From positions 1,453-65,452 of the forward strand of contig JAZSHW010000132.1 of NCBI GenBank assembly GCA_045533495.1: a stretch of DNA of 64,000 bases. Reading direction: 5' to 3'. The notes beneath the pieces are model-generated. The model did not search any database and was not told where the DNA came from. It saw nothing but the letters and a program-made list of their open reading frames with translations. This document shows positions 2,377 through 9,495 of this stretch, piece after piece (position 1 is the stretch's first letter; each line of letters begins with the position of its first letter). Source of the DNA: Ruminiclostridium sp. (GTDB lineage Bacteria; Bacillota; Clostridia; Oscillospirales; Ruminococcaceae). The translations under genes were made by a program, and so were the position numbers.

Positions 2377-2402
2377 ACCCGTGAAGATAATTCTTCACGG
2401 GT
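2377..2402. repeat. Left copy of a 26-bp direct duplication (whole terminator hairpin)
   Basis: acccgtgaagataattcttcacgggt is identical to 2712-2737. It is itself a 10-bp-stem hairpin. Confidence 0.9.
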
Positions 2403-2711
2403 CAGACTGAAGACAAACTCACGCACCGCAAAAATGCACAAAATTTTGCAGTAAAATTACAGATATACAAAAATAGCAATAAAAAAGTTTAGGGGAGCCG
2501 AAAACGGCTCCCCTAAAGCATTTTGCTTAGTTTGTCACCCGCCCCTCGACTGTACCTTATGCGAACACTTTGCTGTGCGTCGTCCTGACGCACTTTGTGT
2601 GTTCACTTTACGGCATCCTTGCCGTTTGTACGCCTATCGGGGCGGTTTCCTCCTCTGCGTGCGTTTTTCTTCGTCTGCTCTCGTGTAGCCAAAGTCTTTG
2701 TTTACACGCTG
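2403..2711. mobile_element. 309-bp ORF-less repeat element, copy A (putative non-autonomous insertion)
   Basis: About 92% identical to 7755-8064 by manual alignment. No ORF of 60 aa or more. Bracketed by a target-derived 26-bp duplication. Internal 13-bp stem-loop (2488-2517) and an 87-nt core identical between copies. Confidence 0.6.
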
Positions 2712-2744
2712 ACCCGTGAAGATAATTCTTCACGGGTTATTTTG
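2712..2744 (+). terminator. metY intrinsic terminator (right copy of the duplicated hairpin plus T-run)
   Basis: 10-bp stem acccgtgaag / cttcacgggt, loop ataatt, followed by ttatttt. Only this copy retains the T-run. Confidence 0.7.
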
Positions 2745-3106
2745 AAATCAGACGTATAAATTGAAATTTAACGCTCCGCTAGGTTATTGTAGCCCCCAAC
2801 CCCCTTTCCCCCTTCCCCCTGAGGAAAGGGGGGAAATACGGGGGCTGCCGCCCCTGCGACCTTGCTTGGGGCCACGCCCCAAACCCCTTTTATATCGGCG
2901 TTTGTGGGCTATTTAGCATCCTGTTTTAATTAAACCGTTTCCGTAGGGGCGTCTATCAGACGCCCGCCGCCGTAGGCGGAATTTGGTGAACGCCACGCGT
3001 TCAAACAACAATTCAACTCTCACAATGGTGTACTCCTGCCGTTTCACCTGCTACGGCTAAGCAGAGTATTGTAAAAGGCAGGAATCGCCAGCGGTGGCAC
3101 ACCGCC
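2738..3106. repeat. Mosaic of GC-rich REP-like hairpin modules (BIME-like region A)
   Basis: Shares modules with 7376-7724: ataaattgaaattt (2756-2769), ccgtaggggcgtctatcagacgcccgc (2941-2967), ccgcc-gta-ggcgg, gaacgccacgcgttc (2988-3002), gccagcggtggc. No ORF. Confidence 0.55.
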
Positions 3107-4084
3107 TCAGCAGAATTCGTGCAATGTGCTATGAACCTTTTCTCCATTCTTTTCGGCTAAGGCTCTTTCTATATTCCATCTTATATGCTCTTTAAGATCA
3201 TCCCAGCCATCAAAGGACAGACCGAAAACTCTTTCCATTTTTGAAACATTGTAATAATAATGCTCGCCCTCTTCATCAGTGGCTATGATATTGCTTTTTG
3301 ACAGAGGCATCATTTCCTTTGCCGCTAAAGCTATATCGTACCAGGAAATAAAGTTTCTGCCCAGTGCAAAGAACACTTCTTCGTTAAGATCACTTTCCAC
3401 AAGGTTTACATAAAGCTGTGCAATCTGTGCTGATGATAAGAACTGAGTACCGTCATTTCTTGAAAATGATAAATCTCTGTCATTTACAATTGCCTCAGCA
3501 ATGTTCTTAAATCTTGTATCCGACTGGGACGCACCGTCAGGTACGGCAGGGTTTGAAAAAGTATATCCCGGGCGGATGATGTTGCGGTGCATTCTGACCT
3601 TCTCTCCGTATCCTCCCTGCTTGCTGTAATACTGGCGGAAGCCTAAAATATACATCTCGCTTGACGCCTTTGTAGAGCCGTAAAGATCTGTGGGTACACG
3701 AAGAGCCGTTTCCTCATCCATTCCGTTTCTGAGATTGCCTGTTGCCGCTGTTGAGCTGGTGTAGATAAAATTCTTTACCCCTGCTTTTTCTGATACGTCG
3801 AGTAAAAATGCTGTTACCTTTGTATCGTTTTCCATCATAGAAACGGGATCGTTACCCCAGCCGAGTGCTATATGAATTACCGCATCACAGCCCTTTACTG
3901 CTTCTTCGAGTACATTGAAGTCAAGAATACTTCCCTTTATAAGAGTTACATTCTTCATATTCTTGTATGCGGGAATACGATCGGGTGTACGGGTGAGAAG
4001 CTTTAAGCTATGCCCCTTTTCAAGCAACGCCTTTGTTACATACTGTCCGATATTGCCTGTGCCGCCTGTTAAAAAAATCTTCAT
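3107..4084 (-). CDS. NAD(P)-dependent epimerase/dehydratase-family SDR
   Basis: 325 aa. N-terminal Rossmann motif TGGTGNIG and catalytic YGSTK (YxxxK). Confidence 0.8.
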   Translation of the reverse strand: MKIFLTGGTGNIGQYVTKALLEKGHSLKLLTRTPDRIPAYKNMKNVTLIKGSILDFNVLEEAVKGCDAVIHIALGWGNDPVSMMENDTKVTAFLLDVSEKAGVKNFIYTSSTAATGNLRNGMDEETALRVPTDLYGSTKASSEMYILGFRQYYSKQGGYGEKVRMHRNIIRPGYTFSNPAVPDGASQSDTRFKNIAEAIVNDRDLSFSRNDGTQFLSSAQIAQLYVNLVESDLNEEVFFALGRNFISWYDIALAAKEMMPLSKSNIIATDEEGEHYYYNVSKMERVFGLSFDGWDDLKEHIRWNIERALAEKNGEKVHSTLHEFC

Positions 4085-5554: not shown

Positions 5555-6928
5555 ATGGAATTCAATGTAATGATAATACTATACGACTGTGCAGTGATAC
5601 TCCTTATGACAAAGCTGCTGGGTATGTTCACAAGAAAATTAGGACTTCCTCAGGTCGTGGGTATGATTATAGCGGGTATACTTATAGGCCCTGCAATATT
5701 CAGCCAGCTTGACTTAGGCAGCTTCAAGGGACTTATAAATCCGGGTGAAATTGAAAAAGAGGTACTCCACAGCTTTTCACAGATAGGTGTTATATTTATT
5801 CTCTTTTCAAGCGGTCTTGAAACGGATTTCAGAGAGCTTAAGAAAAGCGGTGCGGCGGCAACAGCGATAGCGGCGGCAGGCGTTATTGTTCCTATCGCAT
5901 TAGGCACTTTGGGTGCTCTTATGTTTATGGGCGGTATCGGAGAAATAACAAATCCTGACAAGCTGATGAACGCTATTTTCGTGGGCTGTATCCTTTCGGC
6001 AACCAGCGTCGGTATAACGGTAGAAACACTAAGAGAACTCGGCAAGCTCAACACAAGAATAGGTACTGTTATTTTAAGTGCCGCAATCATTGACGATGTA
6101 CTGGGTATCATCGCACTCAGTGTTGTTACAGGTATCAGCGGCGGCGGAAATGTCGGTATCACGCTTTTAAAGGCTTTAGGCTTCTTTGTATTTACAATAG
6201 GTGTGGGACTGCTTATGAGAATACTTTTCAAAAACCTCGTAAGACATTACCCCCACAAGAGAAGAACAGGTATATTTGCCCTTGTTATGTGCTTTACCTT
6301 TGCCTTCTGTGCAGAAGAGCTGTTCGGCATCGCCGCAATCACAGGCGCATTTATGGCAGGTCTTATGCTGAGCGGTATGGACGAAGCTCCCATCCTTGAC
6401 CGTAAGGTAGTAGTCAGCGGCTATATGATATTCACCCCTATCTTCTTTGCGTATATAGGAATAAGTGCAGATTTTTCAAGCTTCAACATGGCAGGACTTA
6501 TGTTCGCTATAGCCTTTGTGGTAATAGGAATAGTAGGAAAGATAGCAGGCTGTTCACTTACTGCAAGAGCCTTTAAATATAAGGGTAAGGAAAGCCTTGC
6601 GGCAGGCTTTGGTATGATAGCACGAGGCGAAGTTGCTTTAGCTGTCTATGCAGCGGGTAAGGGTCTTATATACTACGATGAAAGCGGAGCACTTGCAGGT
6701 ATTGATCCTCTTGTTGCTACTATCTTCCTTATCATAATCACTTCTATCCTCTGCCCTGTTTTCTTAAAGCTTACCTTCAAATCACATCACAGCGAGGAAT
6801 TACCTCACACCCACAGACTTAAACCCAAAACCTTCTCTCTTGAAGCTATGGAAGCACACCTTGACGCCCATCAGCTTGTAACAGAAAGCGAATGTAAAGG
6901 ATGCGGAAAATGCTCAGAAGAACAGTAA
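5555..6928 (+). CDS. Cation:proton antiporter (CPA2 / Kef-NapA type)
   Basis: Polytopic membrane protein with Na+/H+ exchanger family features. ATG at 5555 has the RBS gaaggtga, and the 26 upstream codons of the ORF look non-native. C-terminal tail carries CKGCGKC. Confidence 0.82.
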   Translation: MEFNVMIILYDCAVILLMTKLLGMFTRKLGLPQVVGMIIAGILIGPAIFSQLDLGSFKGLINPGEIEKEVLHSFSQIGVIFILFSSGLETDFRELKKSGAAATAIAAAGVIVPIALGTLGALMFMGGIGEITNPDKLMNAIFVGCILSATSVGITVETLRELGKLNTRIGTVILSAAIIDDVLGIIALSVVTGISGGGNVGITLLKALGFFVFTIGVGLLMRILFKNLVRHYPHKRRTGIFALVMCFTFAFCAEELFGIAAITGAFMAGLMLSGMDEAPILDRKVVVSGYMIFTPIFFAYIGISADFSSFNMAGLMFAIAFVVIGIVGKIAGCSLTARAFKYKGKESLAAGFGMIARGEVALAVYAAGKGLIYYDESGALAGIDPLVATIFLIIITSILCPVFLKLTFKSHHSEELPHTHRLKPKTFSLEAMEAHLDAHQLVTESECKGCGKCSEEQ

Positions 6929-7338
6929 CTGCAATACTGATAACGGTATTATCTATCCTTCTCTTTTGCTCTTGTAACAGCAACAATATTCCTTCCGATA
7001 CTGAAAGTAAAATCGGAAAATTTGTTGACGGCTATTATCAGATAGATCAGATAAAAGGCAAGGAGCTTATGGATACCGAAGAGAATTACATCATCCTTGA
7101 TGTAAGAACTGAGGAAGAATATAAGGAACAGCATATCAAAAATGCTATCCTTATCCCCCATACCGAAATAGAGCAAAGAGCCGAAAAAGAGCTTACCGAT
7201 AAAAATCAGCTTATTTTAGTCTACTGCCGCAGCGGCAACAGAAGCAAGACTGCCTCGAAAATACTTGCTGAGCTTGGCTATACCAATGTAATGGAATTCG
7301 GCGGAATAAACAGCTGGGCGTACGGTACAATAAAATAA
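6901..7338 (+). CDS. Rhodanese-domain lipoprotein
   Basis: Signal peptide with lipobox LLFCSC. Rhodanese fold with active-site loop CRSGNRS. Overlaps the antiporter gene by 28 nt. Confidence 0.85.
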   Translation: MRKMLRRTVTAILITVLSILLFCSCNSNNIPSDTESKIGKFVDGYYQIDQIKGKELMDTEENYIILDVRTEEEYKEQHIKNAILIPHTEIEQRAEKELTDKNQLILVYCRSGNRSKTASKILAELGYTNVMEFGGINSWAYGTIK

Positions 7339-7341
7339 AAA

Positions 7342-7376
7342 AATCGCAGGAGGCAAAGTCTTCTGCGATTTTTTTG
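7342..7376 (+). terminator. Intrinsic terminator after the rhodanese gene
   Basis: Stem aatcgcag / ctgcgatt followed by T7. Confidence 0.65.
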
Positions 7377-7724
7377 AACGCGTGGCGTTCAATCCAAATT
7401 CCGCCTTTGATAATACTTGTGGATCACAAAGGTTTGCGAACGGCGGTTACATACGATAATTGTAAAATAAATTGAAATTTGACAGCGGGTTGTACCATTA
7501 AAAATTGCGATGACTTATGCGGGCGACTAAGTAGTCGTTGGTCTAAAGACCACGACTTTTACGATATTTAATTTGTTGGATTTTGTTGATTGTATCGGTA
7601 TTTGCGGGCGTTGTCTATCCCCGTTTTAATTGCTCTATTCCGTAGGGGCGTCTACCAGACGCCCGCTTAATTCTGCACAAACCCAACCGCCGAAGGCGGA
7701 AATGCCAGCGGCGGCTCACCGTAA
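7376..7724. repeat. Mosaic of GC-rich REP-like hairpin modules (BIME-like region B)
   Basis: Shares modules with 2738-3106: gaacgcgtggcgttc (7376-7390, inverted relative to A), ataaattgaaattt (7467-7480), ccgtaggggcgtctaccagacgcccgc (7640-7666), ccgcc-gaa-ggcgg, gccagcggcggc. No ORF. Confidence 0.55.
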
Positions 7725-7754
7725 AAATCCCACATCCTTTCGGATGTGGAATTT
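7725..7754. repeat. Left copy of a 30-bp direct duplication (whole terminator hairpin)
   Basis: aaatcccacatcctttcggatgtggaattt versus 8065-8094; 29 of 30 positions identical. Confidence 0.88.
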
Positions 7755-8064
7755 TAAACTGAAGACAAACTCACGCACCGCAAAAATACACAAAATTTTG
7801 CAGTAAAATTACAGATATACAAAAGTATCAATACAAAAGTTTAGGGGAGCCGTTTTCGGCTCCCCTAAAACATTTTTGCTTACTTCGTCAACCGCCCCTC
7901 AACTGTACCTTATGCGAACACTTTGCTGTGCGTCGTCCTGACGCACTTTGTGTGTTCACTTTACGGCATCCTTGCCGTTTGTACGCCTGTCGGGGCGGTT
8001 TCCTCGTCTGCATGCGTTTTTCTTCGTCTGCCAGCGTGCAGACAAAGACTTTGTCTACACGCTG
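7755..8064. mobile_element. 310-bp ORF-less repeat element, copy B
   Basis: Same orientation as copy A, about 92% identical, with an 87-nt identical core (7902-7988). The near-perfect 16-bp terminal hairpin lies at 8032-8064. Confidence 0.6.
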
Positions 8065-8104
8065 AAATCCCACATCCTTTCGGATGTGGGATTTATCTTT
8101 TTTT
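8065..8104. terminator. Hairpin plus T-run between the rhodanese side and the flotillin operon (right copy of the duplication)
   Basis: 13-bp stem aaatcccacatcc / ggatgtgggattt, then atcttttttt on the plus strand. The matching minus-strand U-run now lies left of the other copy (7723-7727). Confidence 0.6.
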
Positions 8105-8112
8105 ATTTAGAA

Positions 8113-9495
8113 TTACTTATCAAGAGATGCAGGAGCGTCAATCTTTTCGCCTAAAAACTTAGGTAATTCCATACCTGCCTGATTGAACATTTCTGCCATA
8201 GGAGGTACTGACTTCATCATACCGCTGATAAAATCTGCTGTAGCAGTCTTACCTTCACCGTTAGAACCGCCGTCCCATACAGTAACCTTGTCGATCTTGA
8301 TGTTCTTGATAGCTTCAACCTGAATACGCATAAGCTCTTCCATATTGTTTGCAAGGATAAGCTTGATTGCACTGTCTGCGTTGCCGCCGGCAGCAGTAAC
8401 GAGTTCTCTCATACCGTTTGCCTGCTTCATTAAGATTTCCTGAGCACCGAGAGCCTGAGCTTCCATCTTTGCATATAAAGCGTCAGCTTCACCCTTTGCG
8501 GTACGGCGAGCAACTTCAGCCTGTGCTTCCGCTTCGATGACTGCCTGTTCCTTAGCAATGTTAGCCTTAACGATAACGTCAGCCTGCTGAGTTGCAGTTT
8601 CGAGCTGTGCACGGGTTTCTTCTGCCATTTTCTGAGCTATGTAAGCTTCTTCCTTAGCCTTAGCCGCCTGAACAGCTTCTGCAGCTGTAGCGATACGCAT
8701 AGCTTCCGCTTCTTTTTCTCTTCTTAAAGCTTCTGACTGAGCAACTTCGATCTTGGATTCGTTTTCACCACGGATAGCAAGAGCGTTTGCAGCAGCAACC
8801 TGGATACGCTGGTCACGCTGAGCGTTAGCCTGACCGATTTCACCGTCTCTGTCCTGTTCAGCAACAGATTTCTTCGCATCGTTGATAGCCTTAGCAGCAG
8901 CTTCCTTACCAAGAGCCTCGATATATCCTGATTCATCGTTGATGTCGGTTACGTTTACGTTGATAAGTCTTAAACCGATCTTCTTAAGTTCGATTTCTAC
9001 GTTGTTGGAAACTGCAAGAAGGAACTTATCACGGTCGTTGTTGATTTCTTCGATTTCCATTGTAGCAACTACAAGACGGAGCTGACCGAATACGATATCC
9101 TTAGCAAGTTCCTGAATCTCGTTCATACGAAGACCTAAAAGTCTTTCTGCCGCATTCTGCATAACACCGGGTTCTGTTGAGATACCTACTGTAAATCTTG
9201 AAGGTACGTCAATACGGATGTTCTGCTTTGAAAGTGCGTTCTTAAGGTCAACGTTGATTGACATAGGTGTAAGGTCCATAAACTGATAGGACTGGATGAT
9301 AGGCATAATGAATGCCGCACCACCGTGGATACACTTAGCACTTCTTGCCTGACCGCTGGAGTCACTACCAACCTTACCGTAGATAACGAGTATCTTATCG
9401 GAAGGACACTTGCGGTAGCGGGAAAGAATTCCCATGAATAATGCGAAGAGTATGATTACACCTACGCAAATTCCAACTAAAATTTCTGGTGCCAT
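8113..9495 (-). CDS. Flotillin-like SPFH domain protein (FloT/YuaG type)
   Basis: 460 aa. N-terminal TM segment, SPFH/band-7 region, and a long Ala/Glu-rich coiled coil (AEAQAEVARR...). Confidence 0.88.
   Translation of the reverse strand: MAPEILVGICVGVIILFALFMGILSRYRKCPSDKILVIYGKVGSDSSGQARSAKCIHGGAAFIMPIIQSYQFMDLTPMSINVDLKNALSKQNIRIDVPSRFTVGISTEPGVMQNAAERLLGLRMNEIQELAKDIVFGQLRLVVATMEIEEINNDRDKFLLAVSNNVEIELKKIGLRLINVNVTDINDESGYIEALGKEAAAKAINDAKKSVAEQDRDGEIGQANAQRDQRIQVAAANALAIRGENESKIEVAQSEALRREKEAEAMRIATAAEAVQAAKAKEEAYIAQKMAEETRAQLETATQQADVIVKANIAKEQAVIEAEAQAEVARRTAKGEADALYAKMEAQALGAQEILMKQANGMRELVTAAGGNADSAIKLILANNMEELMRIQVEAIKNIKIDKVTVWDGGSNGEGKTATADFISGMMKSVPPMAEMFNQAGMELPKFLGEKIDAPASLDK

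Follow-up and report, generated by a model that had tools for sequence, protein, structure and literature searches.

Copy B, a 310-bp segment of the window (by which we mean the whole 64-kb stretch of DNA analysed), is best explained as a MITE derived from an IS1182-family IS. We consider it very probable that such an element is mobilized by a transposase supplied in trans, takes a target chosen by its shape, is joined to that target at the 5′ foot of a hairpin, and in this way duplicates the whole palindrome. To judge from its ends, the element is a non-autonomous (MITE) derivative of the Firmicutes clade of IS1182 that includes the IS1272-like elements. The IS1182-type DDE transposase (NF033551; PF05598, PF01609, PF13751) is not encoded by the element, which is therefore filed as an IS1182-family derivative and not as an IS.

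Copies B and A in the window

An earlier note on this DNA had described copy B as the second copy of one mobile element, flanked by 30-bp repeats with 29 of 30 identical positions, and both parts of this description are borne out, since a copy with 92% identity (copy A) lies in the same orientation at 2403–2711, and the direct repeats at 7725–7754 and 8065–8094, AAATCCCACATCC-TTTC-GGATGTGG[A/G]ATTT, differ solely by A 7750 versus G 8090 (Table 1). Both repeats fold as hairpins; the 13-bp stem that the note had assigned to them is perfect in the right copy, whereas the stem of the left copy is interrupted by the mismatch at 7750. The one-sided runs were also found where the note had placed them, with A5 at 7723–7727 only beside the left hairpin copy, serving as the U-tract for minus-strand transcripts, and T7 at 8098–8104 only 3′ of the right copy. 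A bidirectional terminator has thus been split, as had been claimed, into two hairpin copies that are each left with a U-tract on one strand only, and the internal 13-bp stem-loop with its minus-strand U-run is equally present at 7840–7869.

Table 1 Features of the two element copies and of the neighbouring genes (positions are those of the window)
Feature	Position	Strand	Remarks
Copy A of the element	2403..2711	+	309 bp; 92% identity with copy B; termini intact (CAG...CTG)
Copy A, left target hairpin copy	2377..2402	.	26 bp, ACCCGTGAAGATAATTCTTCACGGGT
Copy A, right target hairpin copy	2712..2737	.	26 bp, ACCCGTGAAGATAATTCTTCACGGGT
Rhodanese gene	6901..7338	+	Neighbour of copy B
Copy B, left target hairpin copy	7725..7754	.	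AAATCCCACATCC TTTC GGATGTGGAATTT; stem mismatch at 7750
Copy B, non-autonomous element assigned by its ends to the IS1182 family	7755..8064	+	310 bp, 310-bp size class
Left end of copy B	7755..7789	+	Terminal inverted repeat (family consensus CAGACTGAAGACAAACTC) and conserved 35-nt block
AT-rich segment of copy B	7790..7839	.	Poorly conserved
Internal hairpin of copy B	7840..7869	.	Perfect 13-bp stem; terminator-like on both strands
Central folded domain of copy B, helices 3–7	7892..7998	-	Outer stems covary strongly
Sub-terminal inverted copy of the end motif	8010..8029	.	Pairs with left end 7756–7776 in the single-strand fold
Right end of copy B	8032..8064	.	33-nt terminal palindrome T (CAGCGTGCAGACAAAG A CTTTGTCTACACGCTG)
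Copy B, right target hairpin copy	8065..8094	.	Perfect 13-bp stem, 4-nt loop
SPFH/Band_7 (flotillin-like) gene	8113..9495	-	3′ end toward right hairpin copy; context, outside the element

The duplicated hairpin is not the same at the two sites, being 26 bp long at copy A and 30 bp at copy B. The outer arm of the terminal palindrome T (8032–8064) constitutes the right terminal inverted repeat. The left tip of copy B reads TAA where the family has CAG, and copy B may therefore no longer be mobile. The genes around copy B are housekeeping genes; no transposase gene was found in its vicinity, and the 64-kb window contains no tRNA gene and no Rfam match at gathering thresholds. Directly after the rhodanese gene, at 7337–7375, stands a strong bidirectional terminator-like palindrome (AAAAAAATCGCAGGAG...CTTCTGCGATTTTTTT) that holds no element. 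The loop of the internal hairpin is flipped between the two copies (TTTT at 7853–7856 in copy B versus AAAA at 2500–2503 in copy A), and the hairpins flanking another copy (L051) have the loops ATAC and GTAT in an otherwise perfect palindrome; such loop flips are consistent with template-switch or hairpin flip-flop events.

Census of the element family

A 24-nt probe of the left end, run against a collection of species-representative genomes, found 88 loci, all of them in Oscillospiraceae/'Ruminiclostridium' MAGs of ruminant guts (at least five MAGs), at about 10 to 40 copies per genome. A scan of metagenomes with an 18-nt probe, conserved even in distant copies, gave at least 120 loci, and the two censuses together comprise more than 200 relatives in ruminant and human gut Clostridia. 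Among the metagenome matches listed is a human-gut sub-family (CAGACTGTCGATAAAC..., about 240 bp) that obeys the same hairpin rule, and one copy lies in an unannotated faecal contig labelled phage; a search of the plasmid collection with the element returned no direct match. The 63 complete copies, with the termini 5′-CAGACTGAAGACAAAC...GTCTACACGCTG-3′, measure 240–338 bp and belong to three size classes (about 240, 310, and 336 bp), which differ by about 69 and 27 nt; the inner part of the central domain (7892–7998 in copy B) is missing in the 240-bp class. Terminal inverted repeats are present (left, CAGACTGAAGACAAAC; right, as the reverse complement, CAGCGTGTAGACAAAG) and co-vary between sub-families (AGACAAA versus TCGATAAA/TCGAAAAA).

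With regard to coding capacity, neither a transposase gene nor a conserved ORF was detected in the element, only mechanical ORFs. In 58 of the 63 copies the longest frame without a stop is found on the plus strand, with up to 100 codons in copy B, but the excess of these frames over composition-matched shuffles is only modest (mean z of 1.2), and the element was accordingly rejected as a coding gene. One-ended copies are common in human-gut metagenome loci (L093, L099, L100, L126, L127, and L157), where the left end and the left hairpin are kept, the break lies 0–13 nt into palindrome T, and there is no right hairpin; this pattern suggests that they may have arisen by deletions removing two adjacent palindromes. 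A tandem array of units of about 165 bp (L035 200–700), which was picked up by the scan for duplicated palindromes, is unrelated to the element.

Hairpin targets, empty sites, and insertion history

The target of the element is specific in shape, and what is duplicated upon insertion is the whole palindrome. The same locus-specific hairpin stands on both sides in 49 of the 54 complete copies with both flanks readable (47 were scored automatically, and L070 and L077, rejected by the caller, were added as duplications with mismatches), 5 of the 54 lie between two different, unrelated hairpins, and a hairpin-free insertion was found in none of the 54. The gap between junction and palindrome is 0 bp in 38 of 47 copies and 2 bp at the maximum. 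Hairpin adjacency is far beyond chance; the null frequency, taken as the share of positions in related loci with a perfect hairpin (stem of 8 bp or more) ending 0–2 nt on their 5′ side, is only 0.24%. The duplications are 17–36 bp long in all scorable insertions, and their length follows that of the palindrome (r = 0.97), with a difference of at most 2 bp in 45 of 45 cases. The targets all differ in sequence, the flanks have no common sequence motif, and no bias was seen in the orientation of the element relative to the U-tract or terminator side.

The element is mobile, and two of its sites were found both empty and filled. The locus orthologous to the site of copy A in MAG SIG529 (L061) has a single hairpin followed by ATTTT and no element, and the hairpin orthologous to that site in MAG RGIG2157 (L076) holds another sub-family of the element; in the second pair, L084 is empty with one hairpin and L055 is filled with two. 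At the 3′ end of the flotillin ortholog in RGIG8806 (L032), one unrelated hairpin and no element are present. A single locus occupied in two species (L069 3343–3583 and L045 5445–5780) has the same two flanking hairpins in both, which differ slightly (by compensatory changes) from each other and enclose a 241-bp element in the former and a 336-bp element in the latter, in opposite orientations; that the same hairpin pair holds different inserts implies that the elements are replaceable exactly at their termini. Inversion through the inner hairpin arms was rejected for this locus, because the bases next to the junctions have kept their places and the two elements are of different size classes. 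The earlier note had proposed a genome-wide census, taken the flanking repeat for a target duplication of a whole terminator-like hairpin, argued for a mechanism rather than chance, and named a pre-existing hairpin tandem in genomes lacking the element as a contrary finding. In the census, every complete copy with both flanks readable abuts hairpins; the duplication and the mechanism both stand on the counts and the length correlation given above and on the two empty sites, and no such tandem was seen, L061 and L084 each carrying a single hairpin.

Ends shared with autonomous IS1182-family elements

The left end of the element (7755–7789) is identical at 16 of 18 positions to the end which IS1182-family ISs have downstream of their transposase gene, and the right end (8032–8064) matches, again at 16 of 18, their palindromic end upstream of that gene. 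Two autonomous relatives, whose transposases contain PF05598, PF01609, and PF13751, behave in the same manner as the element. The IS of the Macrococcoides canis plasmid pB8 (NZ_CP091282; L236 3073–4551, 1,479 bp) encodes a 456-aa 'IS1182 family transposase'; its ends CAGAATGTAGACAAACTC and ...GACTTTGTCTACAGTCTG are 16/18 identical to the MITE left and right ends, and it is flanked by an exact 22-bp hairpin duplication. In the metagenomic IS encoding P0076 (L238 2929–4445, 1,517 bp), the palindromic end CAGCTTGTCGACAAAG... matches the MITE right end and the plain end (reverse complement CAGACTGTAGACAAACCC) the MITE left end, each at 16 of 18 positions; exact hairpin duplications occur at two of its four sites (25 bp in L238 and 26 bp in L241), and two different hairpins are found at the other two (L239 and L242). 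The direct repeats are of variable length in the element (17–36 bp) as well as in the autonomous relatives (22–26 bp), and ISfinder gives a range of 0–60 bp for the IS1182 family. The ends of ISKpn6, a proteobacterial IS1182 member, are unrelated to those of the element, and the end match is therefore limited to one IS1182 clade.

When the viral collection was scanned with the 16-nt ends alone, further short families were found (L232/L234, 327 bp; L221, about 238 bp; and L231), which have the same ends and hairpin duplications together with unrelated interiors. A further element of this kind (L227/L235) occurs in isolate genomes, and its end matches annotated IS1182-family ISs of Firmicutes plasmids. 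Two structures of the flanks may be recorded here: in the left flanks of L158 and L093, the right end of another family, a shared hairpin, and the left end of the present family follow one another in tandem, and on pB8 a 50-bp solo end-palindrome (CAGATTGAAGACAAACTCAC...GTAAGTTTGTCTTC; L236 3001–3050) lies between two different hairpins immediately upstream of the IS.

An autonomous partner was looked for in 1.69 Mb from MITE-bearing genomes, window included, but neither an IS1182-type transposase gene nor any long element bounded by the ends of the MITE was present there, and tblastn of the same 1.69 Mb with ISKpn6, the Macrococcoides transposase, and 120 Firmicutes IS1182 proteins returned nothing; a helper is therefore assumed to be present in the same cells. 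Several candidates for the partner were discarded: multi-copy segments among the loci are merely orthologous regions, end motifs outside the short copies are coding-sequence noise, duplicated palindromes 0.15–5 kb apart enclose only MITE-sized inserts, and inverted end pairs 0.7–4 kb apart enclose FtsW and GH95 genes and are hence chance matches.

Folded interior

The fold of the interior was assessed on the 63-sequence alignment with 500 shuffles and slid controls. As a single strand, 98.2% of the cells are paired and 23 pairs have changed on both sides (303 cells), values reached by none of the 500 shuffles, and the slid controls give 6–9 pairs. Covariation is concentrated in palindrome T (8032–8064), the central stems (7892–7998), and the internal terminator (7841–7868), and the internal hairpin 7840–7869 has undergone compensatory changes at six pairs across the family. 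Folding is stronger for the minus strand (−83.6 versus −60.8 kcal/mol), which corresponds to the transposase-sense orientation of the parent IS, and G·U outnumbers A·C on it (87 versus 31). On this strand, the GGA-loop hairpin CGGCAAGGAUGCCG (7963–7978) is invariant in all copies of the 310- and 336-bp classes, and an Rfam match to PrrB/RsmZ covers 7836–7997, ending at the internal terminator, with 24.2 bits (E = 0.0017) against a gathering threshold of 44; the RsmZ-like match and the invariant hairpin are found only in the long forms. The covariation and the strand-biased G·U excess are not explained by simple recognition of the ends by a transposase, and the covariation may reflect an RNA function, a requirement for DNA structure, or templated quasi-palindrome correction.

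Alternative explanations

The strong covariation, the better fold and G·U excess of the minus strand, the weak PrrB/RsmZ match that ends at the internal terminator, and the invariant CGGCAAGGAUGCCG hairpin of the long forms are what would be expected if the element were first of all a gene for a structured RNA (small RNA or 3′-UTR module) for which transposition is only the vehicle, one candidate being a CsrA/RsmA-binding RNA that contains GGA-loop hairpins and stops at a terminator of its own. We regard this as unlikely, however, because the Rfam match, at 24 bits, falls far short of the gathering score of 44, the abundant 240-bp class has no GGA hairpins and the second one is without GGA in many copies, no orientation bias relative to the terminator side exists, the interiors of other families with these ends are unrelated, and compensatory changes in palindromes can also come from templated quasi-palindrome correction at the DNA level; besides, an RNA gene adds only a function and does not compete with the identity of the element as a transposon. 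Similarly doubtful is the speculation that the MITE acts as a mobile '3′-end cassette', which would place a structured RNA module with its own bidirectional terminator at dozens of operon ends and in which the RNA would be under selection. If this were true, neighbouring genes would gain a common folded 3′ UTR, possibly protein-binding (e.g., CsrA-type) or stabilizing, and the host or the element would have selected for the interior RNA.

Terminator or attC hairpins are also the homing sites of class C group II introns and of IS1111-attC elements. The element is highly structured as a single strand, and like class C introns it inserts beside intrinsic terminator hairpins recognized largely by structure, so that one might think of a class C group II intron without an ORF, a palindrome-associated element of the IS200/IS605 type, a cassette resembling those of integrons, or a bridge-RNA IS110/IS1111 element; we hold any of these to be very improbable, because the duplication and the end homology to a DDE family contradict them. 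Such mechanisms duplicate nothing or 2 bp, whereas the element is flanked by a direct duplication of the whole palindrome; its termini are CAG/CTG and not GUGYG...AY, no Rfam match to group II introns, HEARO, or others of this kind was obtained even at E up to 5, unlike the case of class C introns, which are ribozyme retroelements with D5/D6 and no target duplication, and the RNA guidance of IS110 needs one conserved target sequence, whereas the targets of the element all differ. A palindrome-associated element derived from IS200/IS605, which would have sub-terminal hairpins, insert 3′ of a fixed tetra- or pentanucleotide, and make no duplication, was rejected on the grounds that the element duplicates the palindrome and that the flanks are without a motif. 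Even less credence, and in effect almost none, is given to the notion that the hairpin pairs pre-existed as tandem terminators, or came from local duplication or recombination, and that the element merely lies between them: the 5 of 54 copies between unrelated hairpins and the one diverged hairpin pair with different inserts in L069/L045 would agree with it, but the two orthologous empty sites, having one hairpin where the filled site has two, refute it as a general explanation, and in 49 of the 54 cases the two flanking hairpins are nearly the same, down to loops that are non-palindromic and directly oriented. As for other IS families, duplications of similar size, unusually long at 16–28 bp, are documented for the IS1202 subgroup of the IS1202 family (PMC10132070), and a MITE of that family would share this property. 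That the element belongs there is nevertheless highly unlikely, since the IS1202-family termini are 5′-TGT...ACA-3′ (PMC10132070) against CAG...CTG in the element, the transposase of the group is TnsB-like, a hairpin target is not reported for it, and the ends of the element match those of IS1182-family ISs at 16 of 18 positions.

Proposed transposition mechanism

As an IS1182-derived MITE, the element would descend from a parent IS that lost its transposase gene while keeping both of its different ends, with about 200 bp of folded non-coding sequence in place of the gene; this interior includes the bidirectional terminator hairpin. It is assumed that an IS1182-type DDE transposase, supplied in trans, binds the element ends. 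The target is picked by shape and not by sequence, namely as a palindrome, in most cases an intrinsic terminator, from which each strand can extrude a hairpin. The extruded form may be a cruciform or, on single-stranded intermediates of replication, hairpins. In established DDE chemistry, 3′-OH ends attack both target strands, and the stagger between the two points of attack becomes the duplication. On the basis of this chemistry, we infer that the 3′-OH ends of the element join the target, on either strand, where the hairpin has its 5′ foot. Each element end would thereby carry the whole palindrome as a single strand, and repair of the gaps would then yield the arrangement hairpin–element–hairpin.

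The duplication would in this mechanism equal the palindrome (17–36 bp), because the two feet of an extruded hairpin adjoin each other whatever the length of the stem. Duplications that vary from 17 to 36 bp and yet end within 2 bp of the palindrome edge are hard to fit to a ruler along B-form DNA but follow readily from an extruded palindrome. Where two different hairpins are adjacent, joining between them would lead to an insertion without duplication, as would apply to 5 of the 54 MITE copies and to two of the four sites of the P0076 IS, and the re-use of such a double-hairpin site would account for L069/L045. A hairpin-capped break followed by fold-back synthesis (P-nucleotide-like) was rejected, the loops of the flanking hairpins being non-palindromic and in direct orientation.

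Possible consequences for transcription

Minus-strand transcripts that have passed the right hairpin copy (8094–8065) of copy B continue with CAGCGUG... and meet no U-tract there. The next hairpin with a U-run on this strand is the internal one, with the tail CUUUUGUAUU, and the left target copy keeps its U5. Since a minus-strand U-run is absent at the right copy and CUUUUGUAUU follows the internal stem, it is plausible that flotillin transcripts read through 8094–8065 and stop at the internal hairpin. More generally, a bidirectional terminator is turned by such an insertion into two that act on one side each, and a further terminator is brought in by the element itself, so that the 3′ ends of dozens of operons could be rewired. 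The elements can also break short-read assemblies and mislead the predictors of terminators and small RNAs.

Comparison with known systems

Hairpin targeting by the IS1182 family is already documented, in that IS1272 and TnSha1 of staphylococci insert into terminator stem-loops of varying size and sequence (PMC5678879, PMC4923244). The element is accordingly of limited novelty and adds an abundant new MITE to an IS family that was already known. Like these staphylococcal elements, it takes stem-loops as targets (there often experimentally confirmed terminators), without primary-sequence specificity and in both orientations, and the 16-bp terminal repeats of IS1272/TnSha1, sometimes with extra copies of one end (PMC5678879, PMC4923244), may be counted as a further likeness. 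[quoted passage not shown] 13b). As IS1272 deletes the stem-loop without duplication, the chemistry at the hairpin feet is not uniform within the family. Duplication of the whole hairpin is thus well illustrated by the element family but is not a new principle.

With the ISs of pB8 and P0076, the element shares 16 of 18 terminal positions, the same left/right asymmetry with one palindromic end, the duplication of the whole hairpin (22, 25, and 26 bp), and the occasional location between two different hairpins; unlike these ISs, which encode the DDE transposase, it is gene-less, has a conserved folded interior with an internal bidirectional terminator, and reaches about 10 to 40 copies per genome. 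It resembles bacterial MITEs such as Correia, RUP, and ERIC in being short, gene-less, multi-copy, and intergenic, with terminal inverted repeats, target duplication, and the potential to alter transcript ends. However, typical MITEs make a fixed duplication of 2–10 bp at a short motif, whereas the element duplicates a shape-chosen palindrome of variable length. In spacer integration by Cas1–Cas2 and in casposons, staggered attack at both borders of an often palindromic repeat duplicates the repeat; the analogy is one of geometry only, as the enzyme family and the ends are different and no cas genes are involved.

Autonomous IS1182-family elements have the whole-palindrome mode in common with several MITE families that live in Clostridia of the ruminant and human gut. 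With over 60 independent insertions and with empty sites, the element provides a large natural data set for a poorly documented type of transposition that targets shape and duplicates whole palindromes, of interest chiefly to specialists in mobile DNA and genome annotation.

Another repeat family next to the element

A second, GC-rich repeat family adjoins both copies of the element in the window (2760–3110 and 7560–7724). Its core reads ccgtaggggcgtcta[c/t]cagacgcccgc, with odd C/G runs at 2795–2860, and it also occurs in L077, L076, L031, L036, L005, L030, and L061; it could be another mobile repeat or an ncRNA.
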